From positions 33,980-97,979 of the forward strand of contig JADFNK010000001.1 of the NCBI GenBank assembly GCA_022563405.1: a stretch of 64,000 bases of DNA, read 5' to 3'. This document shows positions 4,792 to 59,233 of the stretch, in pieces. Position 1 is the stretch's first letter. Each line of letters starts with the position of its first letter. Source of the DNA: Gemmatimonadota bacterium (GTDB lineage: Bacteria; Gemmatimonadota; Gemmatimonadetes; Longimicrobiales; Gaopeijiaceae). The notes below the pieces were generated by a model, which saw nothing but the letters and a program-made list of their open reading frames with translations, did not search any database and was not told where the DNA came from. A program made the position numbers and the translations under genes.

Positions 4792-7526
4792 CTCGAGCGC
4801 GCGCCGGGGGGGGCCACCGGTCCGTCCGTCCCTGGCGAAGTCGCTCCGCCATCCGGTCGTGCCGGAGGAGCACCGCCAGCCGCGCCGCTTCTGATGTCGA
4901 GAAGTAGCTCCAGTCCCGCCGGGAAGTTCGGTGCGATCTCGAGGGCCCTCAGAATCGTCCGTCGGGCTTGAACCGGATCACGGGCCCGTACATAAGAGAG
5001 AGAGAGATCGTAGTACGCGCCCGCCAAGTCCGCCGGCTCCAGCGCGAGAATGGCTCTCCGCTCCCGCACCTCACCTATTGCGTCCCCACGGGCCTCATGA
5101 GCCTCCGCCAGGCGGTCGTGTAGATCGACCTCGTAGGGGTAGATGAGAACGGCCGCGTCCATCGCCTCGGCGGCGCGCTGGGTGTCGCCCAGCTCGGTCC
5201 GAAGCTCGGCGAGTTGGAGAAACGCTTCGTAATGGCTCTCGTTCAAAGCAGTCAGGTGCGCGAGTGCGTCCGCGGCCTCCTCCGTCTCTTCTCGTTGCTG
5301 ATGAATCTGCGCGAGATACCAATACGGACTGCCCGCTCCTCCGTACTCCGGGAAGAGATCGACCGCTGCGCGGAGATGCTCCTCGGCCTCCTCCAAGCGT
5401 TCCTCCTGGAACAGCATGATTCCGAGGGACAGCCGCGCCTGAAAGTTGCCCGGGTTCTCTCGCACCACCCTCGTCAAATCTTCGATCGTCTGCGGGTTCT
5501 CAGGGATGCCCGGGCTGTCGGCGGGCGGCTCGAGGGCCTTCAACGGGATGGCGAAACGCTCCTGGAAATATTCGTCGAAGTCGCGGTCGAGCTCGTCCAT
5601 GCTGATGTCCAGGAGGCTCTCCATCAGCTCCGGTGTCGCCCGTCCGTCCCGGTATCCAAGGAGCATGTCCCGAATGACCTGAAGTCCCCAGCGGTCCTCG
5701 ATAAAGGCGAACACGAGCGACGCTTGCAGATAAGAATCGATGACCTGCTCGGGGTAGTCGGGCTGCACGAAACCGGAATTCAACTCGCTTACCGGTAGCA
5801 GCATTCCCTCGCGGTATCGGTTGAGAAACGCGGGGTCGGGCTGGTGGCCCCAACCTTCGCGGGCGCGGCGCTGTTCGTGGACGGCCAAACCCTCGGAGAA
5901 CCAGCGCGGGACGTTGTGCTCGGTGAGCCCGAGGTGGAACACGTGGGCGAGTTCGTGCCAGAGGACGGACGCCCAGTTGAAATTTCCGACGGGCCGGGCG
6001 GCGGGCGAGTCCATAGCGAGAAGGCTTCCGAAGGCCACGCCGAGAGCGCCCATGCCACTCAGCCCGATGGTCCGGACAGAGAAGTCGCTGGAATTCGGAT
6101 AGACCTCGATTCGGATGGGCAGCGGCGGCTCATACCCGCCATACCGTTCTACCAGGGCCTCGTATGCCTCTTCCGCGATCTGTTCAATGTACGGCTGGAG
6201 CAGTGCCGACTCGCGTTGGTGCACAACGAAGAGGAAACGGGGGTCGTCGTCATCGATATCGTAGTACTCGAAGGTGTCCATGAGCAGCAGCGTGTTGTAA
6301 AACCACACGCTGTGCGGATCTCCCTCGAAGGCCGTCTCGAGGTTGGCCTTGGCTTCCTCGATCAAGCCGAGCCGCAGCTGATTCACGCCGAGGATCCCGT
6401 AGGCTCTCCACGAGAGGGAGTCTATTCTGACGGCCTCTTCCGCCAGGCGAGTCGCCTCGAGGTACTTCCGGCTCTCTACGCTCAAGAGCGCGATATCGTT
6501 GTACAGCTCGGCGTAGGTTGGGCTGAGCCCGGTAACCTGGTCACGGATCGCCTCATACTCACCGGTCTCGCCGCGGAGAAAATGACTGGCCGCGAGGACG
6601 CTCAGCGCCTCCAAGGAGGTGGGGTTCACCTCGAGTGCCCGCTCGAGCTCGGATCGGGCCTCTTCGTGATTTTCCGCCTTGAGGAGAAGTCTGGCCTTGA
6701 AGACCCTCGCTTCGACCAGATTCTCGTTCTGCTCGAGGGCCATGTCTACCTGATCCATCACTCCGATCGTGCCATTGAATTCCATCGCGCGGGCTAAACC
6801 CAGGAGCGCGCGTGGATGGTTCGGATTTAGTTGGAGCACCTCCTGCATCGCCACGTCGGCTTCCGGTCCGTTGTACTTCTCGAGAAAGAACTCCCCGACC
6901 AGGACGCGCGGTTCCAGGTTACCCGGATCGGCGGCGATGGCTTCATCGTAGGCCCTGAGGGCGTCCTGGAAGAGTGCGTACTCCCGGGAGCCCAGGTAGC
7001 GAACCGCTGTCGCCACGGCGGTGAGGTCGGCCGAGGAGAGAGGCGTCGAGCCGTTGTAGATGTCGATGAAGGAGTCGAAGATCGATAACGCGGCCTCACG
7101 ATCCCCATACGTCCATTCTATGATGGCGAGCTTCAAGCGGGCGGAGTGCCGGTCGACCGCACCACCCTGGACCGCTCGATTGAAGTGGACGCGGGCTTCG
7201 TCGATCCGTCCCAATTCGTAATAGACTTCGCCGGCGGTGTAGGCGAGTTCGGTCTCCAAAACGGGCGGGGCCTGAGCCAAGGCTTCGAGCGCATCCTCGT
7301 ATCGGCCCACCTCGGCCAGGGCCGAGACATACGCCACGTATGCTCTTCGGCGATCGTTTCGGCTCAGATCCGGCCCCGGGTCCGATCGGGAGATCTCCGC
7401 GAGGGACTCGATGGCCGTCTCATAGGCCCCCGAGCGAAGTTCAGAGATGGCTTCGTCCAGCGTCTGCGCTCCACCGGCGGATGGACCGAACGCGGCGAGC
7501 GCGACCAGGAGAAACCCGCGTTTCAT
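4788..7526 (-). CDS. Secreted TPR-repeat protein with embedded gluzincin (peptidase MA-like) HEXXH...E motif
   Basis: 912 aa. Signal-like N-terminus MKRGFLLVALAAFGPSAGGAQ and multiple TPR-like helical repeats. WHELAHVFHLGLTEHNVPRWFSEGLAVHEQ matches HEXXH followed by a downstream Glu. Confidence 0.85.
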   Translation of the reverse strand: MKRGFLLVALAAFGPSAGGAQTLDEAISELRSGAYETAIESLAEISRSDPGPDLSRNDRRRAYVAYVSALAEVGRYEDALEALAQAPPVLETELAYTAGEVYYELGRIDEARVHFNRAVQGGAVDRHSARLKLAIIEWTYGDREAALSIFDSFIDIYNGSTPLSSADLTAVATAVRYLGSREYALFQDALRAYDEAIAADPGNLEPRVLVGEFFLEKYNGPEADVAMQEVLQLNPNHPRALLGLARAMEFNGTIGVMDQVDMALEQNENLVEARVFKARLLLKAENHEEARSELERALEVNPTSLEALSVLAASHFLRGETGEYEAIRDQVTGLSPTYAELYNDIALLSVESRKYLEATRLAEEAVRIDSLSWRAYGILGVNQLRLGLIEEAKANLETAFEGDPHSVWFYNTLLLMDTFEYYDIDDDDPRFLFVVHQRESALLQPYIEQIAEEAYEALVERYGGYEPPLPIRIEVYPNSSDFSVRTIGLSGMGALGVAFGSLLAMDSPAARPVGNFNWASVLWHELAHVFHLGLTEHNVPRWFSEGLAVHEQRRAREGWGHQPDPAFLNRYREGMLLPVSELNSGFVQPDYPEQVIDSYLQASLVFAFIEDRWGLQVIRDMLLGYRDGRATPELMESLLDISMDELDRDFDEYFQERFAIPLKALEPPADSPGIPENPQTIEDLTRVVRENPGNFQARLSLGIMLFQEERLEEAEEHLRAAVDLFPEYGGAGSPYWYLAQIHQQREETEEAADALAHLTALNESHYEAFLQLAELRTELGDTQRAAEAMDAAVLIYPYEVDLHDRLAEAHEARGDAIGEVRERRAILALEPADLAGAYYDLSLSYVRARDPVQARRTILRALEIAPNFPAGLELLLDIRSGAAGGAPPARPDGGATSPGTDGPVAPPGARSR

Positions 7527-8524
7527 TCGTTCCCGCCCGTCCGAGCCTCGATCTCCCTGTTGGTGAGAGCCAGCTCGACGAGCAACTCCTCCAGTTCGTT
7601 ATCGTACCGGTCCTGGTCGATCTGACCCCTCAGCGGGAGGAGCTCCTCGATGCGCCGCTCCACGTCCGCCTTCCGCACCAAGATGGCTCGGAGCTCCTCA
7701 TCGTCGGTGGCGCGCGCCGCGGCGAGGGTCGGGTCGCCGGCCAAGAACATCGTCCGTGCGAGAGCACCATCCAGCGCGTCCACCAAGTCGGTGCTCCCTT
7801 CTCCATCGCCGTTGTCGTCGAGCACGGGGTGCTCGGTGGCGATCCGGTTCGACGTCTCGTATTCCCGCGTGACTTCGGAGCGCGCGAACTCGAATGCCTC
7901 CCAGACCGACACGCGCCCATCCTTGTTCAGATCGGCGTCTTCACCGGTGAACGCGTCGATGAAGTAGCCCCCGAAGATCGTTTCGTTCCTCTCCCTCCCG
8001 GTCCTCGTGGCGGTGACGATCGTACGTCCCTCTCCTGAGAGGGCCTTCACGAATTCTCCGCTCGCACTCGCGAGGTTCATGAACGCCACTCGCCGACCTG
8101 ACAGCTGATCGAGGTGCAGGGCGAAGTCCTCCGCGGTGAGGTCGGGCCCCGGAAGGTTGAAGCGAGACTGTCCGGTGGAGTAGCTGCCGTGCCCGATCAG
8201 CACCACGAAGATGTGATCGCCGGGCTGGGAGTTGGAAACCAGCTTGGCGAAAGCCAGGTCGACGTTCTCTCGGGTCGAGCGGTCCTGGATGCGCACATCG
8301 GCGGTCGGGTCCTCGCCCAAGTAGATGATGTGATCGGCGGGTAGGCCGAACTTCTCACTCGCCACAGCGACGAGAGCGCTGCCCCACTCCGTGAATCGCT
8401 CGCTGTACATTGGGTCCCCGCCCAGACCCGTGATGACGAGGAGGTGGGGGTCCTGCCCCGCTACCGGTCGAGCCACAGCCGTCGCCGCCAAGAGCAAGAC
8501 GATGCCAAGAGTGCCCCTAGACAT
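7523..8524 (-). CDS. Legumain/C13-like fold protein with Cys->Ser at the nucleophile position, an EF-hand loop and a C-terminal coiled coil
   Basis: Start moved to the internal MSRGTLGIVLLLAATAVA, which removes the overlap with the upstream gene. GDHIFVVLIGHGS aligns to legumain DHVFIYFTDHGS. AFMNLASASGEF aligns to FYIEACESGSM. DLNKDGRVSVWE is a canonical 12-residue EF-hand loop. Confidence 0.7.
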   Translation of the reverse strand: MSRGTLGIVLLLAATAVARPVAGQDPHLLVITGLGGDPMYSERFTEWGSALVAVASEKFGLPADHIIYLGEDPTADVRIQDRSTRENVDLAFAKLVSNSQPGDHIFVVLIGHGSYSTGQSRFNLPGPDLTAEDFALHLDQLSGRRVAFMNLASASGEFVKALSGEGRTIVTATRTGRERNETIFGGYFIDAFTGEDADLNKDGRVSVWEAFEFARSEVTREYETSNRIATEHPVLDDNGDGEGSTDLVDALDGALARTMFLAGDPTLAAARATDDEELRAILVRKADVERRIEELLPLRGQIDQDRYDNELEELLVELALTNREIEARTGGNE

Positions 8525-8535
8525 CACCGGGGAGA

Positions 8536-10827
8536 TCAAATGAGACTCCTCTTCCTCCGGTAGCCCCACTCACCGGCCATCAATCCCAAGACGAGAAACA
8601 GCAGGATCGGCATGTCCCAGAGATCCCGTTCCTCGGTGAGCGTGACGCCGGCCCCGGTAAAGCTGATGTCCTCGGCGAGGGTCGCCACATTCTCCGGCGT
8701 GTAAAACAGCCCGCCGGTCTGGTCCGCAATCCGGCGCAATGTAGTCCCCCGCATGCTCGCGTCGAAGTACTCGTCGGCCGAGGGCGCCGCCTCCACGTAG
8801 GTGACGGCGGTCCCGATGGTGTCTCCGCCGCGCGACGCGAGTATGGAGACTTCGTACAGCCCCGGGGAGGTGGTCAGAAAACGACCGCCGTATTGCCCGT
8901 CTTGTTCTACATCCCATTCCAGGGTGATGGTCATGGAGTCGCCGGATGGATCGCGTACGACGGCGACGACGTTGGCGTTGTTTACGGCCGCATACGCCGA
9001 GTCTCCCACCTCGACCAGGATATTCACGGGTTGCCCCGGCTCCACCAGCTCACGCTCGGTTTGGGCCCCGACCTGCTCGGGCACACCGTCCGTGAGCCAG
9101 CGGAGAAGCTGCCGCCAGAACGTCTCGTGGGTCTGGTCTTCGAGCGGGATGTCGGCGTGCATCTGCCAGATCCAGGAGTCCTGGATCGGCAGCACGACCA
9201 CCTTGCCGCGGCCATAACGATGGAAGGCGAGTACCACCTGGCGCTCCCGGTCCTCCTCCGTACCACCGGTCAAGAGGCTGGTGGCACCGGGTTTGAGACG
9301 TGTGATGGGATTGAGGGTCGTGACGGACGGGAGGGCTTCCCACCGTTCAACGACCGCCTCGCTGTTGTCGGCTCCGAGTTGCGTAGCGGGGTGCGTGAGA
9401 CCCGCGCGCGTGGGGGTGATGAAGAGCTCGTCGAAGTAAGGCCCGACCCCTGAGCTCAGTTCGTCGTCCAGAAAGACGGGTAGGACCTCCGCCAAGCGCG
9501 TGCCTTGGTAACCTCCCTCCGCGAACGCGTTGCGGCCGCCCAGGAACAAGAGGCCGCCGCCCCGCCGGGACACGAAGTCCGCGATCATGTCGAGCTGATC
9601 GTGCGTGAAGAAGCTCGCCTCCACACTCCCGAGGATCAGCGCCCGGTACCGGAACAGCTCTTCCCGTGTCTTCGGGAAACCGGCCGCGAGCTCCTCGGCG
9701 TTGTCGACGTCCAGACGGAGGAATTTGCCTTCGGCCGTACGTTGAAGAAGCACAACTTGGAGGTTCTCGTCTTCAGAGACCGCACGGCGGAGGAATTTCA
9801 CCTCCCAGCGAGGCTCCCCCTCGAAGTAGAGGATCTTTTCCGCGTCGCTCACGACGTTGACGAGGACGTCCCGAACGTTGTTCTCCGTCACCCGCTCACC
9901 TGGCTGAATCGAGACTCGGAATCGGAGCAGACGGGGTCCCGCGTCCTGGGCCTGGATCCGGACCCTGACCACCACCGGTTCGCCATCGCGCTCGAAGGTC
10001 ACGTCCTCGGAGGCCAGAAGCAGGCCTGTGTCCTCCACCACGAGTTGGACCGTCCGCCCCGAATACCCCCGGTGTGACACGATGACGTCTACCACCAACG
10101 ACGTTCCTGCGAGGACCGTCCTCGGCATCTCCACGCGGCTGATTTGCACGTCCGGCGTAAGTTCCTCCTCACCGAGGCCCACTGTATAGACGGGAATGCC
10201 GGCAGCCTGGAGCGGCAAGAGCGATTCGGCCAAGACCTCGCCGGAATTGTCGGCACCGTCCGAAAAGACCACCAAACCCGAGATCGGAACGCCGGCCAGC
10301 TCCTCCTGAGCCCGCACCATAGCGTTACCGAGGTTCGTCGCCGTACCCGAGTACGACAGATCGGCCATGTCGTTTAGACGGCTCGCGTCGCGGCTGAAAC
10401 GGAAGAAGCGGAGCGTGAACTTCTCTTCCAGAGCCGTCAGAAGCTCGCTGCCTTCGCTGCCGAAGGTCGCCTGGACGAAGTCGCTTCTGGCCACTCCGTC
10501 TTGATCGGTGATGCGCATGCTTTGCGAATCGTCGATCAGAATACCCACGAAATTCCGCTGTGGAACGACCGAAGTGAGTATCAGCGTAGGCCGGAAGAGA
10601 ATGAAGACGAGGATCGCCACCAACCCGAGCCTCAGCGCCGCCATCACACCTCGGTCCCATCGGCTGCTGGCTCCCCTGGCCGCTCTATACGTCAAAAGGG
10701 CAGGCAGCGTAACCACCGCCACACCGCCCAGAACGAGCAAGACCGGCCAAGGCGAGGCGAACGTGAAGTCCCCCTCCTGGAACAGGAGCAGCCTGTACTT
10801 AAAAAGGAACTCGAAGATCGTGTCCAT
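8536..10827 (-). CDS. Large membrane-anchored VWA-domain protein (Bat-operon type, GATase1-like middle region)
   Basis: 763 aa with N-terminal TM helices. FVGILIDDSQSMRI is a VWA MIDAS motif. LILGSVEASFF...GGGLLFLGG resembles a ThuA/GATase1-like module. Confidence 0.85.
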   Translation of the reverse strand: MDTIFEFLFKYRLLLFQEGDFTFASPWPVLLVLGGVAVVTLPALLTYRAARGASSRWDRGVMAALRLGLVAILVFILFRPTLILTSVVPQRNFVGILIDDSQSMRITDQDGVARSDFVQATFGSEGSELLTALEEKFTLRFFRFSRDASRLNDMADLSYSGTATNLGNAMVRAQEELAGVPISGLVVFSDGADNSGEVLAESLLPLQAAGIPVYTVGLGEEELTPDVQISRVEMPRTVLAGTSLVVDVIVSHRGYSGRTVQLVVEDTGLLLASEDVTFERDGEPVVVRVRIQAQDAGPRLLRFRVSIQPGERVTENNVRDVLVNVVSDAEKILYFEGEPRWEVKFLRRAVSEDENLQVVLLQRTAEGKFLRLDVDNAEELAAGFPKTREELFRYRALILGSVEASFFTHDQLDMIADFVSRRGGGLLFLGGRNAFAEGGYQGTRLAEVLPVFLDDELSSGVGPYFDELFITPTRAGLTHPATQLGADNSEAVVERWEALPSVTTLNPITRLKPGATSLLTGGTEEDRERQVVLAFHRYGRGKVVVLPIQDSWIWQMHADIPLEDQTHETFWRQLLRWLTDGVPEQVGAQTERELVEPGQPVNILVEVGDSAYAAVNNANVVAVVRDPSGDSMTITLEWDVEQDGQYGGRFLTTSPGLYEVSILASRGGDTIGTAVTYVEAAPSADEYFDASMRGTTLRRIADQTGGLFYTPENVATLAEDISFTGAGVTLTEERDLWDMPILLFLVLGLMAGEWGYRRKRSLI

Positions 10828-13366: not shown

Positions 13367-15202
13367 GTGCCGCCTGAGTTGGCGAGGGCCCGTTCCGCTG
13401 ATCTCCCACCTTTTAAGGAGCGAATGATCGCGCTCCGCCTCATCCCGAGGTTTCTGGGCATGGTGTGGAGGGTTAAACCCGCCTATGCCGCCGCCATTCT
13501 TTCGTTCCGGGTCCTGCTGGCGTTTTCGCCCGCGGTCCAGCTCTGGATCGGAAAGCTCATCATCGACGGGGTTCTGGCGAACATCGGGGCGACTACTCCC
13601 GACTGGACCGGCCTTTTCCGCTTGGTGGCATTGGAGTTGGTGGTGGCGCTCGCCTCGGACGTGTTACAACGCACGTCGAATCTGCTCGAGAGCCTGCTCG
13701 GCGATCTGTTCGGCAATCGGCTTTCAGTACAGATCATGGAGCACGCGGCCACCCTGGACCTGGAGAACTTCGAGGACCCCGAGTTCTACGATTCGCTGCA
13801 GCGGGCGCGCCAGCAGACCGTCGGACGGATCGGGCTGTTGGCGGTGCTACTCGGCATGGGGCAGAGCGCGTTGAGCCTGATTACGCTCCTCGGGGTCCTC
13901 ATCGTCTTCAACGGGTGGCTCGTGCTGATGCTCGTGCTTGCCGTACTGCCGTCGTTCATTGGAGAGACACACTTCGCGGGTCTCTCGTATTCGCTGCTCT
14001 ACAAGTGGACGCCGGAGCGCAGGGAGCTCGACTATCTACGTTATGTAGCGACCAGCGACGTGACGGCGAAAGAAGTGAAACTCTTCGGCCTCGCCGACTA
14101 CTTCACTCGCAAGTACGAGCGACTCGCGGACGAATTCTACGAGGCCAACCGAGCCCTCTCCATCAAACGGGCCGCCACGTCCGGTGGGCTCACTGCGGTA
14201 TCCACGCTGGGGTACTACGCGGCATACGTCTTTATCATCGTCGACACAGTGCGTGGATTTCTCACACTGGGCGAGCTCACCATGTTGGTCGGAACGTTCC
14301 GGCAGAGCCGCGGCATGATCAGTGGGATCCTGCTTCGGTCCGCCGACATGTATCGGCAGAGCCTGTTCCTGAGAGATCTGTTCACCTTCCTCGAGATGAA
14401 ACCCCGCACGGCGAGCCCTGAACATCCCGTGCCGGTGCCCCGGCCGATCCGGGACGGCGTGATTTTCGAGAACGTGGGCTTCCGCTATCCGGACAAAGAG
14501 GACTGGGCCCTCAGGGGTGTTTCGCTGAGGATCGGCGCGAACGAGCGTGTGGCCCTCGTGGGTGAGAACGGCGCCGGCAAGACGACGCTGGTCAAGCTCC
14601 TGGCCCGCCTCTACGATCCGACCGAGGGGCGGATCCTGTTGGATGGTATAGACCTCCGCGAATACGACGTGGACGAACTCCGCGGTATGATCGGCGTCAT
14701 CTTTCAGGACTTCGTGCGATACGACCTGAAGGTGCGTGAGAACATCGCGGTCGGGCAGATCGACGCGATCGGCGACCAACCTCGTATCGTGCGGGCCGCA
14801 GAGATGAGTCTCGCCGACGGCGTTATCGCCGGTTTGGAGAGCGGCCTGGATCACATGCTCGGGCGCCGCTTCAAAGGCGGGGCCAACCTGTCCGGGGGTG
14901 AGTGGCAGAAGGTGGGCCTGGCGCGAGCGTACATGCGCGACGCCCAGATCCTCATTCTCGACGAGCCGACGGCCTCCCTCGATGCCAGGGCTGAATATCA
15001 GGTGTTCGAGAGGTTCGCGGACCTCACGGAAGGCAGGATGGCCGTGCTCATCAGCCACCGGTTCTCGACGGTGAGGATGGCGGACCGCATCGTGGTGTTG
15101 GAGGACGGCACCGTCACCGAAGACGGGACTCATGACGAGTTGCTCGTTCTCTCCGGGCGTTACGCGGAGCTGTTCACACTCCAGGCCGCAGGGTACCGGT
15201 AA
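13367..15202 (+). CDS. ABC transporter, fused permease/ATPase (exporter type)
   Basis: 611 aa with an N-terminal 6-TM region. Walker A GENGAGKTT, signature LSGGEWQKV, Walker B ILILDEPT. Confidence 0.9.
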   Translation: MPPELARARSADLPPFKERMIALRLIPRFLGMVWRVKPAYAAAILSFRVLLAFSPAVQLWIGKLIIDGVLANIGATTPDWTGLFRLVALELVVALASDVLQRTSNLLESLLGDLFGNRLSVQIMEHAATLDLENFEDPEFYDSLQRARQQTVGRIGLLAVLLGMGQSALSLITLLGVLIVFNGWLVLMLVLAVLPSFIGETHFAGLSYSLLYKWTPERRELDYLRYVATSDVTAKEVKLFGLADYFTRKYERLADEFYEANRALSIKRAATSGGLTAVSTLGYYAAYVFIIVDTVRGFLTLGELTMLVGTFRQSRGMISGILLRSADMYRQSLFLRDLFTFLEMKPRTASPEHPVPVPRPIRDGVIFENVGFRYPDKEDWALRGVSLRIGANERVALVGENGAGKTTLVKLLARLYDPTEGRILLDGIDLREYDVDELRGMIGVIFQDFVRYDLKVRENIAVGQIDAIGDQPRIVRAAEMSLADGVIAGLESGLDHMLGRRFKGGANLSGGEWQKVGLARAYMRDAQILILDEPTASLDARAEYQVFERFADLTEGRMAVLISHRFSTVRMADRIVVLEDGTVTEDGTHDELLVLSGRYAELFTLQAAGYR

Positions 15203-16857
15203 CCTTCGCCGGGCGGATGGCTCCACCGACCCATCCGGGTGCCTCTCCTCGAGCGGGGGGCCTGTCGGGAGGCCGGCGTATGAAGGTCTTCGAAGACGTC
15301 GAATAACGCCGGATCGAAGATGATTCCGCGATCCTCGCGCATGACCGAGAGAGCGTGGCCCGGCGTCAATCCGGCGCGGTAGCTTCGGCCGGAGGTGAGT
15401 GCGTCGAATACGTCGGCAAGGCAGAGGATCCGGGCTGAAAGAGGAATGTCGTCCCCGGCCAGGCCATCCGGGTACCCTGAGCCGTCCCAATGTTCATGAT
15501 GGTGCCGGACCATCGGTCGGATGTCCCAGGGGAACTCGATCTCCCGGAGTAGATGCACCCCCGCCTGGGGATGCCGCTTCATGATCGCCCACTCCTCGGC
15601 GGTAAGGGGGCCGGGTTTGTTCAGGATGGACGAAGGCACGACGATCTTGCCCACGTCGTGGAGCAGAGCGCCCATCCGGAACCACCTCAGGCGCTCCGAG
15701 TCGATCCCTGAAGCCGACGCCAGAGCACACGCGTAGGAAGCGACACGCTCACAGTGTCCTTGCGTGTAGTGGTCCTTGGACTCGATCGACTCCCCCCAAG
15801 TGCGGACCACGTCCAGGAAGCGGCGCTCCAGCTGCGTGACCCGCTCGCGGACTTCCGCGAGATCGTGTTTCGCGTGGAAGTTCGAGTAGAGTCGGAGACT
15901 CTCGTTCAGGGCCTTGAGGGTGTCCTGGTTTCGGCCCTGCTTTCTATAGACCTCGGCCAACTCCCGTGCCGTCTCGGCGGCCAGAAGTGTGTCCCCTTCT
16001 CTGTCGGCCACCTTGCGTGCCTGTGCGAGCGAGTCGAGAGCCAACTCGAGCCGACCCGTGGATTGGTAGATGGCCCCGTAGTGCTTGAGAATCTCACCAG
16101 TCCATCGCCCACCCGAGACGTCCCGGGAGAGGCTACAAGCTCGATCGCACGACTCGTGGGCACGCTTGAACTCCTTCCTGGTGATCCACATCCGGGCCAA
16201 GTTGACGTGACTGAGCACCTGATGGTCGATTTCTCCGGACTGCTTACATCTTCGCCCGGCTTCCTCGAGGGCGATTTCCGCGTCGTCCCACTCGCCCAGG
16301 TCGGCGTGTAGACGGCCGATATTGTTGAGAAGCGGACCGACGCGGTCGTCCTCTCCAAGCTGGTCGTAGGCCTCTTTGCTGGACTGATACCGCAGGAGTG
16401 CCTCGGTGAAATCCCCCTGGATGTTCGCCACAACGCCCAGGTTCTGGTGGATCATGGCGGCTAGGGTGTCGTACCCCGTCGCCGTCGACGCACGCTCGAG
16501 GCTCCAGGTGTAGTGGTCGGCCGCCGCCTGGAGGTTTCCACGCATCTGCTCCACGATGCCTTTTCCGTTCACCGCGTGCGCCTGGCCCAACACGTCACCG
16601 TGGGCCTCGGCGACCCCGAGTGCGGCCTCGTAGCAGTCCATGGCCGCGGTGAGGTGCCGGTCCTCGTAGTGTGTCCGGGCGATCCACCTCAAAATCGCGC
16701 TGGCGAGGGTCGGGTGCTTGGTCTCGTCGAGGGTGCGGAGCGCGGTCTCGTACAGGGAGCGGGCGCGGCTCCGGCGAGCCTCCCGTTCCGCACCGCGCGC
16801 TTGGGCGATCAGCTCTCGGACGGCCTCCGGAATACCCTCGTCGGTGGTCGAGTCCAC
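15160..16857 (-). CDS. TPR-repeat sensor fused to an HD-GYP domain (putative c-di-GMP phosphodiesterase)
   Basis: 565 aa. C-terminal LLHDVGK and HHEHWDGSGYPDGL are HD-GYP motifs. The N-terminal ~330 aa is a TPR array paralogous to the 17928..18989 product. Confidence 0.88.
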   Translation of the reverse strand: MDSTTDEGIPEAVRELIAQARGAEREARRSRARSLYETALRTLDETKHPTLASAILRWIARTHYEDRHLTAAMDCYEAALGVAEAHGDVLGQAHAVNGKGIVEQMRGNLQAAADHYTWSLERASTATGYDTLAAMIHQNLGVVANIQGDFTEALLRYQSSKEAYDQLGEDDRVGPLLNNIGRLHADLGEWDDAEIALEEAGRRCKQSGEIDHQVLSHVNLARMWITRKEFKRAHESCDRACSLSRDVSGGRWTGEILKHYGAIYQSTGRLELALDSLAQARKVADREGDTLLAAETARELAEVYRKQGRNQDTLKALNESLRLYSNFHAKHDLAEVRERVTQLERRFLDVVRTWGESIESKDHYTQGHCERVASYACALASASGIDSERLRWFRMGALLHDVGKIVVPSSILNKPGPLTAEEWAIMKRHPQAGVHLLREIEFPWDIRPMVRHHHEHWDGSGYPDGLAGDDIPLSARILCLADVFDALTSGRSYRAGLTPGHALSVMREDRGIIFDPALFDVFEDLHTPASRQAPRSRRGTRMGRWSHPPGEGYRYPAAWSVNSSA

Positions 16858-16861
16858 AATC

Positions 16862-17902
16862 TCAAACGCCGTCTTCCAGGCCGTACTCGCGGATCTTCCG
16901 GTGGATCGTCGGCCGTGAAATGGCGAGGATGCGTGCGGCGGCGCTACGATTGCCCCTGGTCATCTTCAGTGTGATGCGCAGCGCCTCGGCCTCAACCTCC
17001 GCCAGGGTCATCCCGATGTCGGGAATCTGGATGGCCTGTCCGGGATCGTCTTTTCTCCCGCGTCCGTTCCCATGCCAGTCGAAGATACTCAGGTGCGTGG
17101 CGTTGATCTCGGGCCCATCACAAAGGGTGATGGCTCGCTGCATCACGTTCTTCAACTCCCGGACATTGCCGGGCCAATTGTGGAGCTTCAGTACGTCGAT
17201 TGCGTCGGCGCTGAGGGGTTTGGGAGCCACTCCTATCTCATGGGAGATCTGCTCCATGAAGTAGCGCGCCAAGATCACCTGGTCGTCTCCGCGCTCCGAG
17301 AGTGGCGGGATGTTGATGCGTAGAACGTTCAGTCGGTAGAACAAGTCCTCCCTGAAGCGCCCCTCGCTCAGGGCGTCCTCGAACGACCCATTGGAGGACG
17401 CGATCACGCGGCACCGCGCCTCTATCTCGTCCGTGCCTCCCACCCGGCGGAAGAGCCGTTCCTCGAGCGCTCGCAACAGCTTCGGCTGTAGGTTGGGCGG
17501 TAGCTCACTGACTTCGTCGAGAAAAAGGGTTCCGGCGCCCGCGAGCTCGAGCAGACCGAGTTTTCGGACTCGGGCGTCGGTGAAGGCGCCCCGCTCATGA
17601 CCGAAGAGCTCTGACTCCAAGAGGTTGGCGGGGATCGCCGCGCAATTCACCGTGACGAAGGGCTCTTGCGCCTCGGAGCCTGCGTAGTGAATACCCCGTG
17701 CGAAGAGCCCTTTGCCTGTCCCCGTGGCTCCCACGATGAGCACGGTCGTGCCTTTGCGAGTAGCGATGCGCATGGAGAACTGGATCGCTTTGCGAAGGGA
17801 GGCGCTCCGACCCACGATGGCTTGGAAGCCGATGTCTGTGGCGTTCTTGTCCGACGGCGCCAAGCCTCCGTTGACTTCTCTACTGGCTAGTTGGTAGCTC
17901 AC
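16862..17902 (-). CDS. Sigma-54-dependent transcriptional activator (AAA+ and Fis-type HTH only, no sensory domain)
   Basis: ORF 16862..18040. I prefer the in-frame GTG at 17902, which is preceded by AAGGAG 12 nt upstream and does not overlap the TPR gene. Walker A GATGTGKG, GAFTDA loop, Walker B LFLDEV, HTH GNRSAAARILAISRPTIHRKIREYGL. Confidence 0.88.
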   Translation of the reverse strand: MSYQLASREVNGGLAPSDKNATDIGFQAIVGRSASLRKAIQFSMRIATRKGTTVLIVGATGTGKGLFARGIHYAGSEAQEPFVTVNCAAIPANLLESELFGHERGAFTDARVRKLGLLELAGAGTLFLDEVSELPPNLQPKLLRALEERLFRRVGGTDEIEARCRVIASSNGSFEDALSEGRFREDLFYRLNVLRINIPPLSERGDDQVILARYFMEQISHEIGVAPKPLSADAIDVLKLHNWPGNVRELKNVMQRAITLCDGPEINATHLSIFDWHGNGRGRKDDPGQAIQIPDIGMTLAEVEAEALRITLKMTRGNRSAAARILAISRPTIHRKIREYGLEDGV

Positions 17903-17927: not shown

Positions 17928-18989
17928 TCATTGGGCTTCAGACCGCATTTGCTCCAGACGCTCCTGAACGGCCGTGGCGTCGAGGCCGGCGTTCGTCTCG
18001 GTGAAGAGCTTGTTCGCCCGCTCGAAGAACTCCCGAGCACTTTCGAACTGCCTCGCCTGTGCGTGTGTTTCTCCCAGCTCCCTAGCCGCCTCCGCAGCCA
18101 GGAGTACGTCCTCGCTTTCCTCGGCCAACTTGTGGGATTGGATCAACGTTTCGGTCGCCATGGACAATTCGCCCTTGGCTCTCTGGATCATACCCAGGAA
18201 CTTGAGCCCGTCCGCCCTCCGGAGGGGGTCGCCCCTCTCGTCGGCGATCGCCAGGGCGCCGGAGACGTGTAGCTCGGCGTCGGTCCACCGCTCGAGTTCT
18301 ATGTAGACCTCGGCAAGGTTGGACTCCACGAGGGCCTGCGTATGGAGGTCCATCCGGTTTCTTGCGATCTCGAGGGCGCGCAGGAAGTACTGCTCGGCTT
18401 CCGCATACTTCCCGAGGTCCGTATGGAGCATACCGAGGTTGTTGAGGACCCAGGACATCCCTTCCTGGAAGCTGCCTTCTTCAAACTGGCGTAAGCTCGC
18501 CCGGTAGCGGACCAGCGCCCCGTCCAGGTCTCCCTGAATGTTCGCGAGGACGCCCAGGTTCTGCTCCACCATGCCGGCCAAGCGGTGCTCTCCGGCGCCG
18601 TCGGCTTGACGGGCTGCTTGCCGGTAGAGGCCTTGTGCCCTTTCCACGTCCCCCCTGCGTTGTGCGATGATGGCCAGGCAGTTGAGGGCGTGGGCCTCTC
18701 CCGCCTGGTAGCTGACCTTGCGCGCCAAGGCACGACTTTCTTGGTAGTGGAATTCGGCGGCGGCGGTTTGCCCAAGCTCCCTACGCGTCGTTCCGAGCCA
18801 ACGGAGGATGTCCGCTCGGAGAGGAGATGGCTCGGAGTCCGGCAGCAACGAAATGGCTGCCTCCAACTTGGACAGCGAGTCACCGAGGGCCCCTCGGGTT
18901 TCTGCCTCGCGTCCCTCGTGGGCGAGCCTGCTGGCCTGAGCTTGTCTCACGTTCGTGGAGTCGCTCTGGCTGTCGACCTTAGGCTTCAC
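17928..18989 (-). CDS. Stand-alone TPR-repeat protein (paralog of the HD-GYP protein's N-terminal half)
   Basis: 353 aa. LANIQGD, LNNLGMLHTDLG and LLAAEAARELGE match VANIQGD, LNNIGRLHADLG and LLAAETARELAE in the HD-GYP protein. Confidence 0.8.
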   Translation of the reverse strand: MKPKVDSQSDSTNVRQAQASRLAHEGREAETRGALGDSLSKLEAAISLLPDSEPSPLRADILRWLGTTRRELGQTAAAEFHYQESRALARKVSYQAGEAHALNCLAIIAQRRGDVERAQGLYRQAARQADGAGEHRLAGMVEQNLGVLANIQGDLDGALVRYRASLRQFEEGSFQEGMSWVLNNLGMLHTDLGKYAEAEQYFLRALEIARNRMDLHTQALVESNLAEVYIELERWTDAELHVSGALAIADERGDPLRRADGLKFLGMIQRAKGELSMATETLIQSHKLAEESEDVLLAAEAARELGETHAQARQFESAREFFERANKLFTETNAGLDATAVQERLEQMRSEAQ

Positions 18990-19048
18990 AGACCTCTATC
19001 TCCGGGCGGGTGCGAAATAAAACAGCGTGAAGACCACTTCGTCCCTAC

Positions 19049-19558
19049 CTACCCTGACGCCACCGCAAACCCACGGAGTTCGCGGATCTCGCCGGGCGCA
19101 AGTTCAAAGAGGATAGTGCCCCCGTCATATAGGACGGGGAAGATCTCTAATATTACGGGGTCGGACGTGGAACCTCCCTCCAAGTAGACGCCGAGGATCT
19201 CCAACCATGGTCGAGCTAGCCTCTCGCCATCAATACGAATCTCAATGGGAACGGCCAAGGGCAATCCAGGAACTCCGAACTCGAAGGCCACAACCGAACC
19301 CTCGAGGACTCGGGCTTCGATCAACACGCTCTCCGAAACGGCCCCCTCCGGGAAATGGATCTCGGTGCCGGCGCCCAGGAGCTCGATTACGCCACCCGCC
19401 GGACCGATCATTTGGTTGGCCACGATTTCCTCAACCGGCTCACGCCACTCTAAGACGCCGAGGCCGGGTGCCGGGGCCGTAGGGTGATCTGCACACCCGA
19501 ACAGACCCAGCATGAGAGTCACGGGGATCGGATACCAAGCCTTCCTCAACAGCTTCAT
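19049..19558 (-). CDS. Hypothetical lipoprotein
   Basis: ORF 19049..19573. I prefer the ATG at 19558 (MKLLRKAW...), which has GAGGAG 8 nt upstream. Lipobox LGLFGC. Confidence 0.6.
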   Translation of the reverse strand: MKLLRKAWYPIPVTLMLGLFGCADHPTAPAPGLGVLEWREPVEEIVANQMIGPAGGVIELLGAGTEIHFPEGAVSESVLIEARVLEGSVVAFEFGVPGLPLAVPIEIRIDGERLARPWLEILGVYLEGGSTSDPVILEIFPVLYDGGTILFELAPGEIRELRGFAVASG

Positions 19559-19616
19559 CTTTCCACTCCTCAATCAATCGATGGTTCCCCGACTGCAACG
19601 GGTGAAGCGCCTCTTG

Positions 19617-19632
19617 AGCAATGTTGGTGCCA
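19617..19632 (-). promoter_or_regulatory. Sigma-54 (-24/-12) promoter
   Basis: The minus strand reads TGGCACcaacaTTGCT, a full match to TGGCAC-N5-TTGCW. It lies 59 nt upstream of the lipoprotein ATG, inside an AT-rich intergenic island. Confidence 0.6.
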
Positions 19633-19747
19633 AAGATTGAAAGTAACGTAAACCATTGTAGGTCAACCAGTTATGACCGATCCGAGTTAAGACCTCCGGG
19701 GTTCAGAGTGTGTCATAGTATTACACTTTCTGGGGATACGCAATGTT

Positions 19748-19776
19748 ATGTTACACTAGTGCGATATCTGTAACAT
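19748..19776. promoter_or_regulatory. Candidate upstream activator site: dyad ATGTTACA-N13-TGTAACAT
   Basis: Perfect 8-bp inverted repeat 116-144 bp upstream of the -24 element. Extra half-site-like copies: TTACACT at 19721 and 19751, TGTAAC at 19779. Confidence 0.4.
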
Positions 19777-19794
19777 TATGTAACGTCGCTTGCA

Positions 19795-20268
19795 CTATTC
19801 GGTGCTTGTGATGCGCACGGACTCCATGACAACCGGTTCGAGTGGGATGTCCCCGGGGCCGGTGGCCGTGGCACCGATCGAGCGGACCGTCTCCATACCC
19901 TCGATCACCTTGCCAAACACCGCGTGTTTGCCGTCCAGCCAGTCCGTGGCGGCGAGGGTCACGAAGAACTGAGATCCGCCGGTGTTCGGCCCGGAATTCG
20001 CCATCGAAAAAACACCCTCCGAGTCGTGTGACAGCTCAGCGTGGAATTCATCGGCGATCGTATAACCTGGCCCGCCTCGACCGTTGCCATCGGGACAGCC
20101 GCCCTGGAGCATGAATCCTTTGATCACGCGGTGGAAGACGATTCCGTCGTAGTAGCCCTTCTCGACCAAGTCGATGAAGTTCTTCGTGGTAGCAGGCGCG
20201 CCCCCCTCGAAGAGTTCAACCTGGAAATCGCCGAGGTTGGTCGTGAAGTGCGCGAGTCGGTTTGCCAT
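19795..20268 (-). CDS. Peptidyl-prolyl cis-trans isomerase, cyclophilin type
   Basis: 157 aa. FHRVIKGFMLQGG...GGPGY...FSMANSGPNTGGSQFFVT is the cyclophilin signature. Confidence 0.95.
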   Translation of the reverse strand: MANRLAHFTTNLGDFQVELFEGGAPATTKNFIDLVEKGYYDGIVFHRVIKGFMLQGGCPDGNGRGGPGYTIADEFHAELSHDSEGVFSMANSGPNTGGSQFFVTLAATDWLDGKHAVFGKVIEGMETVRSIGATATGPGDIPLEPVVMESVRITSTE

Positions 20269-20421
20269 GGTGATCCTGTGATTGAGGTGTCGGCCGAAGT
20301 CGCACGCTCTTCGACCGTGAATCAGATAATCCCGAAAGAGTCCGATCGAGTCCAGTGCGGAAGGCTGTTGCAGGAGTAGAGCGGGCCGTGATGCAGGAGC
20401 GGGCGACGGGCGTCCGGTCCG

Positions 20422-20802: not shown

Positions 20803-21018
20803 GTGGCGAAAGAAGCGATTGAAATCGAGGGATTGGTCAGCGAAGTGCTTCCCAACGCCCGATTCCGCGTGGAGTTGGAGAACGGCCATGAGGTCTTGGC
20901 GTATCTCTCAGGTAAGATGCGGCAACACTACATTCGCGTGCTCGAAGGTGATCGCGTGAAGGTGGAGTTGTCGCCTTACGATCTCAGTAAAGGCCGTGTA
21001 ACCTACCGTTACAAGTAG
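20803..21018 (+). CDS. infA: Translation initiation factor IF-1
   Basis: 71 aa. [39 protein letters not shown]...RVTYRYK is unmistakable IF-1. Confidence 0.95.
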
Positions 21019-58027: not shown

Positions 58028-59233
58028 ATGGGAACACAAGGACACACCAAGGACATTGTGGTTCTCTCCGGAAAGAGGACTCCGTTCGGAACCTTCGGTG
58101 GAAGCTTGAAGAGCTTCACGGCGACAGATCTCGCGGTTTTCTCGAGTGTCGCTGCGATCGAGGTCGCTGGCGTGGATCCGGGCCAGATCGATCACTCGTT
58201 CTTCGGAAACGCACTCCAGACCTCTTCGGATGCGATTTACCTTGCCCGACACGTGGCATTACGGTCGGGCGTGCCTCAGGAAAGCCCGGCGCTGACCGTA
58301 AACAGGCTGTGTGGGTCCGGGTTCGAAGCGATCGTCCAGGGGGCCAAGGAGATTCTGCTCGGGGGAGCCGAGCTGACGTTATGCGGCGGCTCGGAGTCCA
58401 TGAGCCAGGCGCCCCACGTCATACGCGGTGCGCGCTGGGGACAGCTTCGCCTGGGGCCGGCCGGAAACTCTTTCGAGGACCTCCTTTGGGAGGCGCTCAG
58501 TGACTCCAACTGCGATATGACGATGGCGCAGACTGCGGAGGAATTGGCAGAGCGCTACGAAGTGACCCGTGAAGAGGCCGATCAAGTCGCGGTCCGCAGC
58601 CAGCAGCGTGCCAAGGCTGCATGGGACGGCGGTTACTTCGCCGCCGAGATCGTTCCCGTCATGATCGAGAGCCGAAAGGGGGAGCAGGAGTTCGGGCACG
58701 ACGAACACATGCGGCCCGACACCACATTGGAAGTGCTGAGCGGCCTTCGGCCGTTCTTCAAGAAGGATGGTCTGGTGACCGCGGGTAACGCCAGCGGGAT
58801 CGGCGACGGAGCAGCGAGCGCTCTGCTCGCCGCGGCGGATTGGGCCGATCGAAATGGGATCCAGCCTCTGGGCCGCATCGTGTCATGGGGATTCGCGGGT
58901 GTGGAGCCACGGATCATGGGTATTGGACCGGCCCCCGCCTCCCGTCTGGCTCTTGAAAACGCGGGTTTGACGTTGGACGATATGGACTTGGTGGAGGTGA
59001 ACGAAGCGTTTGCGGCCCAGTACATGGCGGTCGAGAAGGAACTCGGACTCGATCCGGCCATCACGAACGTAAACGGCGGGGCGATCGCGCTCACTCACCC
59101 CCTCGCGGCGTCAGGGGCGCGCATCACGATCCATCTTCTCCACGAATTGAGGCGGAGGGGTGGGCGGTACGGCCTTGGGGCTGCTTGTATCGGTGGGGGG
59201 CAGGGTGGCGCAGTGATCGTGGAGGCGCTGTAA
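58028..59233 (+). CDS. Acetyl-CoA C-acetyltransferase (thiolase II)
   Basis: 401 aa. VNRLCGSG with the active Cys, NGGAIALTHPL, GAACIGGGQG. Confidence 0.95.
   Translation: MGTQGHTKDIVVLSGKRTPFGTFGGSLKSFTATDLAVFSSVAAIEVAGVDPGQIDHSFFGNALQTSSDAIYLARHVALRSGVPQESPALTVNRLCGSGFEAIVQGAKEILLGGAELTLCGGSESMSQAPHVIRGARWGQLRLGPAGNSFEDLLWEALSDSNCDMTMAQTAEELAERYEVTREEADQVAVRSQQRAKAAWDGGYFAAEIVPVMIESRKGEQEFGHDEHMRPDTTLEVLSGLRPFFKKDGLVTAGNASGIGDGAASALLAAADWADRNGIQPLGRIVSWGFAGVEPRIMGIGPAPASRLALENAGLTLDDMDLVEVNEAFAAQYMAVEKELGLDPAITNVNGGAIALTHPLAASGARITIHLLHELRRRGGRYGLGAACIGGGQGGAVIVEAL

Follow-up and report, generated by a model that had tools for sequence, protein, structure and literature searches.

XylR at Pu and NtrC at glnAp2 act from pairs of palindromic upstream activator sequences, spaced by some three helical turns and located between about −110 and −170, with a site for integration host factor (IHF) or an intrinsic bend between these sequences and the −24/−12 element. 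PspF lacks a regulatory domain and is controlled in trans by PspA, and the pspF gene is transcribed from a sigma-70 promoter of its own and is not part of the sigma-54 operon. OrpR (DVU2106) of Desulfovibrio vulgaris, a sigma-54 activator with a GAFTDA loop, works with IHF and a palindromic site. At the norVW promoter of E. coli, three NorR sites and an IHF site are all needed, and three dimers form the active hexamer (Tucker et al., 2010; PMC2831303). Here we describe the spacer between a cyclophilin gene and a lipoprotein gene in a 64-kb stretch of Gemmatimonadota DNA (the whole stretch is called the window below). We read this spacer as the regulatory DNA of a sigma-54 operon of four genes that activates itself and has a three-site enhancer, a reading that rests on the sequence and its comparison across loci and to which we assign a probability of about 0.75. 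By analogy, the norVW promoter appears to be its closest precedent, with a further resemblance to systems run by PspF-type activators. In the literature we found nothing on this gene cassette or on sigma-54 promoters in Gemmatimonadota.

A candidate sigma-54 promoter and its conservation

The spacer comprises 236 nt with a G+C content of 45%, against 62% for the window, in agreement with the AT-rich island described in an initial annotation of this DNA. The annotation had further proposed a near-consensus sigma-54 promoter 59 nt before the lipoprotein ATG, a perfect dyad upstream of it as a candidate enhancer site, and an IHF-like core between the two. When both strands were read, every element that it had named was found where it had been placed. 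The features closest to the lipoprotein gene are:

19617–19632, minus strand: candidate sigma-54 promoter TGGCACcaacaTTGCT, with GG at 19631–19630 (−25/−24) and GC at 19619–19618 (−13/−12)
19605–19607, minus strand: predicted start of transcription, placed 12 nt beyond the −12 C by the canonical −24/−12 geometry and giving a 5′ untranslated region (UTR) of about 48 nt
19566–19571, minus strand: Shine-Dalgarno sequence GAGGAG, separated by 7 nt from the ATG at 19558, with AGGAGT unchanged in 13 loci

The promoter element reads AGCAATGTTGGTGCCA on the plus strand (19617–19632) and TGGCACCAACATTGCT on the minus strand. It fits the consensus TGGCAC-N5-TTGCW, with the GG and GC doublets exactly 10 nt apart, and its 3′ end lies 59 nt from the lipoprotein ATG (19558) on the same strand, as initially described. 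TGGCAC-N5-TTGC occurs once in the 64 kb when both strands are counted, versus 0.06 matches expected, and at least one match was obtained in 6 of 100 shuffles; the match exceeds chance. The element is unique in the whole window, which bears out the statement that no second intergenic copy exists. A scan with a position weight matrix (PWM), our own approximation of the published sigma-54 consensus, ranked the promoter first of 128,000 positions, 4.75 bits over the runner-up at 58598–58613, which lies antisense within a 401-aa open reading frame (ORF). Sigma-54-like sites with one mismatch number five in the window (2.7 expected), and the best of them is this same site at 58598–58613.

Scans of genomes and metagenomes yielded 15 orthologous loci, two of them from Longimicrobiales (Gemmatimonadota) genomes, and 13 spacers from close orthologous loci were aligned (alignment A2). 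The spacer measures 234–237 nt in all orthologous loci. All 14 loci whose sequence covers the region contain a single TGGCAY-N5-TTGC, always in the orthologous position, and its GG and GC are invariant in the 13-spacer alignment. The −24/−12 block has a pairwise identity of 0.88, the highest among the regulatory blocks of the spacer; the baselines are 0.61–0.64 at four-fold degenerate sites in the genes on either side and 0.44–0.58 in unconstrained spacer.

Eight more distant copies of the cassette (L016–L023) were fetched through homologues of the activator that it encodes. The activators of L016 and L017 are 72–73% identical to that of the window; those of the remaining six (L018–L023), found in other Gemmatimonadota assemblies and next to different upstream neighbours, are 55–61% identical. 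All eight keep the four-gene order, and seven carry a clear −24/−12 element 59–74 nt before the first gene. The element of L020 is weak and sits at −91 from the first gene; this candidate promoter (CGGCACGCCCCCTGCC, 2048–2063) has PWM rank 13 in its locus, which is high in G+C (75%). L020 is also the one exception among the 11 loci tested in which the −24/−12 element was compared with the rest of the locus; it is the best PWM match of the whole locus in the other ten. The GG and GC doublets do not vary among the 21 other loci whose sequence reaches into the upstream region. Thus the promoter is conserved in front of orthologous operons, close and distant alike, with L020 as the weak case.

Some secondary structure can be drawn in the 5′ UTR (19559–19606, minus strand) of most orthologues: CCCG-N7-CGGG could fold into a small GC hairpin, and CUUCAC might pair with the bases that follow the Shine-Dalgarno sequence. 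Neither the hairpin nor the anti-Shine-Dalgarno pairing is supported: the register shifts between orthologues, single-sequence folds disagree, and RNAalifold gave −2.1 kcal/mol for the 5′ UTR with essentially no covariation and no supported structure.

Three phased 15-bp sites upstream of the promoter

Further upstream, the spacer holds three blocks related to the 15-bp pattern GYAA-N7-TTRC, followed towards the promoter by two smaller elements:

19770–19784, minus strand: candidate enhancer site A (distal), GTTACATAATGTTAC, centred at about −171, one mismatch (GTTA) from GYAA-N7-TTRC
19740–19754, minus strand: candidate enhancer site B (central), GTAACATAACATTGC, centred at about −141, an exact GYAA-N7-TTRC palindrome
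19710–19724, minus strand: candidate enhancer site C (proximal), GTAATACTATGACAC, centred at about −111, with a variant right arm (ACAC)
19661–19673, plus-strand sequence: IHF-like core, GGTCAACCAGTTA against the consensus WATCAANNNNTTR, at about −67 to −55
19646–19658, minus strand: proximal block CAA-N4-TTAC-N-T, at about −52 to −40

The three enhancer blocks have pairwise identities of 0.74–0.82 in the 13 aligned spacers (A, alignment positions 14–28, 0.77; C, positions 74–88, 0.82). Site B (positions 44–58) lies on the symmetry axis of the array, and little or no variation is seen at its G, T, A, A and T, T, G, C. Site A is an inverted copy of site C, and the site C pattern, with up to three mismatches allowed, matches in the window only at C and A. 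The spacing is exactly 30 bp from A to B and from B to C in 13 of 13 loci, and site C is 91–93 bp from the GG of the −24 element. The sites are thus dyad-symmetric, fall within the 80–200 bp upstream expected of such an enhancer and are in mutual helical phase. The proposal that candidate enhancer DNA lies upstream of the promoter at the usual distance is supported, in the form of three conserved sites at 110–170 bp rather than in the form first given, as set out below. The repeats noted initially, TTACACT at 19721 and 19751 and TGTAAC at 19779, are all present.

The symmetry extends over the whole array, C being the reverse complement of A with the palindromic B on the axis: 83% of alignment cells are complementary, against 19–53% in slid controls. 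For sites A and C by themselves the figure is 79%, again with no compensatory changes. Across the array, none of 20 pairs shows a compensatory change and all 13 sequences share one mismatch, which argues for protein sites and not for an RNA helix.

The pattern is concentrated in front of the promoters. Over all loci, 3.7 kb of upstream DNA (−200 to −30 from the GG) contain 23 copies of GYAA-N7-TTRC, and 225 kb elsewhere contain one. A 15-mer of the site B type is present upstream of the distant cassettes L016–L019, L022 and L023; examples are TGTAACATTTTATTGCG in L018 and CGTAAAGGAACGTTACG in L019, and L022 carries three copies. In L018 three TGTWAC hexamers are again exactly 30 bp apart and lie 10 bp nearer the promoter than in the window, a shift that fits a constraint on helical phase. 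Within the window, a second GYAA-N7-TTRC sequence, GTAACCTACCGTTAC, is found at 20998–21012 on the plus strand, in the C-terminal coding region of infA and 1.2 kb upstream of the promoter. This copy is likely a chance match, since two matches in the window compare with 1.1 expected and this one falls inside coding sequence.

Between the array and the promoter, the core sequence TCAACCAGTTA is present at 19663–19673. It fits the TCAA-N4-TTA part of the IHF consensus and not the WA. Its distance to the GG is constant at 41–42 nt, and five of its positions (TAA and TG) are invariant or nearly so in the 13 loci, whereas its pairwise identity of 0.62 is about the neutral level. The likeness to an IHF core claimed initially is partial in sequence and in conservation, the position (−67 to −55) fits, and a bend site of the IHF/HU type is a possibility here. 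The proximal block is better conserved (pairwise identity 0.75). A TTRC 19–21 nt upstream of the GG is found in 12 of 12 loci examined, L016–L019 included; by eye, it is absent from L022 and L023. The block may serve as the AT-rich arm in a site of the IHF type, or it may be an additional TTRC half-site. Together, core and block resemble a candidate IHF site with an AT-rich arm, as at lambda H′.

The operon and its activator

On the minus strand the order is cyclophilin, spacer, lipoprotein, tetratricopeptide repeat (TPR) protein, activator and TPR-HD-GYP protein, with gaps of 59, 25 and 4 nt among the last four genes:

20268–19795, minus strand: cyclophilin-type isomerase, the upstream neighbour; the spacer begins right after its stop codon
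19049–19558, minus strand: first gene, a lipoprotein with lipobox LFGC and a ZU5-like beta-sandwich
17928–18989, minus strand: cytoplasmic TPR protein, 52% identical to its counterpart in L018
16862–17902, minus strand: predicted sigma-54 activator, a bacterial enhancer-binding protein (bEBP) of 346 aa with a Sigma54_activat AAA+ domain, a lid and a Fis-type helix-turn-helix (HTH_8)
15160–16857, minus strand: TPR-HD-GYP protein, predicted cyclic di-GMP (c-di-GMP) phosphodiesterase, the last gene of the operon

We found no sigma-70-like promoter within the operon. Terminator-like matches in it number four, versus 2.9 expected from shuffles, and the only one on the same strand lies inside the activator gene; the spacer between the lipoprotein and TPR genes holds no hairpin stabler than shuffled controls. 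Among the close loci the order cyclophilin–lipoprotein–TPR–activator–HD-GYP is kept wherever the contig allows, and only L013 is without the HD-GYP gene.

The activator matches PF00158 with an E-value of 6.6e-60 and, in its helix-turn-helix (HTH), PF02954 with an E-value of 1.9e-11. The Walker motif (GTGKG/GTGKE) and the DE are conserved in the family, and the HTH is nearly invariant across it. Only about 28 residues precede the AAA+ domain, with no sensor or receiver domain, and alignments to NifA, NtrC, ZraR, FleQ and PspF cover their central and C-terminal domains, from the start of the central domain on; the alignment to NorR begins after its N-terminal domain. Thus the protein is a sensor-less bEBP of the PspF type. 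Its scores fall below every NCBIfam equivalog cut-off (PspF, 233 versus 443 bits; NorR, 265 versus 476 bits), and it belongs to no named subfamily. The loop that contacts sigma-54 reads GAFTDA, as against GAFTGA, and is invariant in all relatives. GAFTDA is listed among the variants compatible with activity and is present in OrpR (DVU2106), a proven sigma-54 activator; in VfmH its effect is reported as unknown. The protein lacks an obvious LFRS or R-N signature of the FleQ kind, and we do not claim FleQ-like binding of c-di-GMP. Its N-terminal peptide MSYQLAS (17882–17902, minus strand) is conserved family-wide, down to 55% overall identity. As an idea only, this peptide might be a docking site for a TPR partner.

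The two TPR proteins are paralogous: the cytoplasmic TPR protein corresponds to the N-terminal half of the TPR-HD-GYP protein (30–35% identity over ~340 residues) and may be a partner or controller of the activator. The HD-GYP gene is accessory, being absent in L013 (4507–4545). In L016 it is split into TPR and HD ORFs (7064–8784), and in L020 (6660–9029) a GGDEF gene and another, incomplete cassette come after it. In the window, the 3′ end of the HD-GYP ORF overlaps a convergent ABC-transporter ORF (13367–15202, plus strand) by ~43 nt (15160–15202). The same ABC-transporter and ferritin neighbours recur in L013, L016 and L017.

No Pfam or NCBIfam match was found for the lipoprotein, which has 42 homologues. 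In structural comparisons with its AlphaFold2 model (predicted local distance difference test score, pLDDT, 68), the best matches are eukaryotic ZU5 beta-sandwich domains (template modelling score ~0.5, E-value 4e-4), and its homologues carry faint matches to Pfam ZU5. Identity among loci is 42–68% for the lipoprotein versus 80–90% for the three regulatory proteins, which marks it as fast-evolving.

Alternatives, proposed mechanism and comparison with known systems

Comparative evidence supports the proposal that the sigma-54 promoter serves the lipoprotein operon and that the Fis-family AAA+ protein of that operon is its likely activator. We suggest that the activator binds the GYAA-N7-TTRC sites, because the motif stays with the cassette across different gene neighbourhoods and because the activator is the sole cassette protein with a recognizable DNA-binding domain, whose HTH is almost invariant.

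Several points weigh against a self-activating operon with a three-site enhancer. No rpoN was found by a search for the RpoN box in six-frame translations of the window and of the loci fetched by then. Gemmatimonas aurantiaca, the type species of the phylum, is listed with sigma-54 (Francke et al., 2011, supplement), which gives support at the level of the phylum only. The 13 close loci are related, so their agreement does not amount to 13 independent observations. Sites A and C each have one degenerate arm, and occupancy by three dimers is therefore a guess. The site spacings in L022 are 13 and 19 bp, and L020 and L021 have no exact site; L020 carries repeated GCAACG/GGAACG motifs instead. 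The IHF-like element is weakly conserved, with the identity of 0.62 given above. The promoter, its start site and the binding are predicted from sequence, and the source of basal expression for an activator gene that is itself driven by sigma-54 is only inferred.

The alternative that survives best, which we nevertheless consider unlikely, accepts the promoter and assigns the 15-mers to another protein (a repressor, a nucleoid protein or a second regulator), with the activator acting at different sites or while free in solution. The three sites A, B and C do differ from each other more than is typical of repeated sites for one protein, and some bEBPs act without specific DNA binding. Indeed, NorR at high concentration does so (PMC2831303). 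Against another binder stand the association of the motif with the cassette through changes of neighbourhood and the properties of the activator HTH just described. The position of the sites (−110 to −170), their dyad symmetry and their helical phasing are also those of classical enhancers.

Still less probable, in our view, is that the activator recognizes the single dyad of the initial annotation:

19748–19776: perfect inverted repeat ATGTTACA-N13-TGTAACAT (8 + 8 nt), with arms at 19748–19755 and 19769–19776

The arm centres of this dyad are 21 bp apart, and it joins the right arm of site A, across the A–B linker, to the left arm of site B. In the window its symmetry is perfect, and the inner five nucleotides of its arms (TTACA/TGTAA) are conserved in the 13 close loci. 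The outer three nucleotides, in contrast, are broken in 2–8 of the 13, depending on position. A perfect inverted repeat of at least 8 nt with a gap of up to 30 nt also arises in 9% of dinucleotide-preserving shuffles of the spacer (chance probability ~0.09), so that any significance of the dyad comes from its conservation across loci. For HTH dimers of this family, the half-sites are usually separated by about one helical turn. The NorR site has the form GT-N7-AC (PMC2831303). What decides between the two units is the distant loci: L018, L019, L022 and L023, the most distant ones with a GYAA-N7-TTRC site, are without the N13 dyad. The conserved unit thus appears to be the 15-bp palindrome, arranged as a phased triplet, rather than the N13 dyad. 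The dyad itself stands as a sequence feature with conserved inner arms; as a conserved binding unit in front of orthologous operons it does not.

We regard it as very improbable that the AT-rich palindromic region acts as RNA, either as 3′ UTR or terminator of the cyclophilin mRNA or as a small RNA. The region does start right after the cyclophilin stop codon, and the symmetry of A and C would allow a long hairpin to be drawn. Covariation was absent in three pairing schemes, however, and to the uncompensated pairs and the mismatch conserved in 13 of 13 sequences can be added a folding energy of 19700–19797 that is not unusual (z = −1.1). The region 19300–20000 matched no Rfam family at E-values up to 1, the spacer showed no terminator-like hairpin followed by a T-run, and the motif persists in loci without a cyclophilin neighbour. 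An RNA element was rejected on these grounds. The least credible alternative, a chance TGGCAC-N5-TTGC match in an operon read from a sigma-70-type promoter in the spacer, can appeal to the frequent presence of housekeeping promoters in AT-rich spacers and to the 6 of 100 shuffles with a match somewhere in 64 kb, but we found no sigma-70-like −35/−10 candidate in 19000–20400, GG and GC of the element are invariant as described, and the operon itself encodes a sigma-54 activator.

For the self-activating operon with its three-site enhancer we propose the following mechanism. Sigma-54 RNA polymerase would bind TGGCAC-N5-TTGCT (19632–19617) as a closed complex. Dimers of the activator would occupy the three GYAA-N7-TTRC-type sites, which lie three helical turns apart on the same face of the helix, and assemble there into the ATPase hexamer. 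The DNA between enhancer and promoter would loop, possibly aided by an IHF/HU-type bend at about −60. The GAFTDA loops of the hexamer would then touch sigma-54, and ATP hydrolysis would open the promoter, with a start near 19606. The sequence of steps from polymerase binding to promoter opening follows established knowledge of sigma-54; for the regulation around it we infer three further elements. Since the activator gene lies within the operon, the activator would be encoded on its own transcript, creating positive feedback. Basal expression would probably come from read-through from the cyclophilin gene, given that no terminator was detected in the spacer. The signal, finally, would enter in trans, as the activator has no sensor domain; candidate carriers are the TPR protein or proteins and the HD-GYP enzyme, with MSYQLAS as a possible docking site.

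A broader reading can be drawn from these elements, and we hold it tentatively, as a possible outcome and not the expected one. The cassette might be an undescribed switch found throughout the Gemmatimonadota, in which the hexamer assembles as a trimer of dimers on the template of a mirror-symmetric enhancer, is gated in trans by the TPR paralogues (perhaps via MSYQLAS) and is coupled to c-di-GMP turnover. If true, it would reproduce the logic of PspF and PspA from unrelated parts, with a sigma-54 promoter closing a positive feedback loop.

As a kind, the element is ordinary: it belongs to a well-known type of bacterial switch and offers nothing new in principle on sigma-54 promoters. Its interest lies mainly in the uncharacterized, phylum-wide cassette under the control of the promoter. 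Very little work has been done on sigma-54 regulation in Gemmatimonadota, a phylum that is widespread and poorly represented in culture. The locus is a clean test case, with a defined promoter, a 15-bp motif and a candidate activator small enough to purify; through the conserved gene set, a surface lipoprotein and c-di-GMP turnover are linked to control by sigma-54. The phased symmetric triplet could also help with a question posed by NorR, namely how enhancer DNA templates the assembly of the hexamer.

XylR and NtrC have sensor or receiver domains and two strong sites with unrelated recognition sequences, whereas a symmetric triplet is seen here. The GAFTDA variant of the GAFTGA loop is shared with OrpR; OrpR, unlike the sensor-less activator of the window, has an N-terminal Fe-S sensory domain, and it uses a 17-bp GC-rich site and has other target genes. 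With PspF the activator shares the composition of AAA+ domain plus HTH only, the two aligning over residues 29–270, and control from another protein. The PspF system has PspA as partner and the psp effector genes; here there is no PspA homologue, and TPR proteins and an HD-GYP enzyme are present instead. The pspF gene stands outside the sigma-54 operon, and the activator gene of the window stands inside it. The arrangement of norVW is the nearest: three consecutive dyad sites upstream of a −24/−12 promoter with a bend site between them, which in our locus is a candidate only. NorR recognizes a core of GT-N7-AC (11 bp) at three sites within 66 bp; the sites described here have the form GYAA-N7-TTRC (GT-N11-RC, 15 bp), recur at 30-bp intervals and are arranged in mirror symmetry. 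NorR carries a GAF sensor domain and is divergently transcribed, whereas the activator of this locus is sensor-less, has no GAF domain and is encoded inside its own operon.

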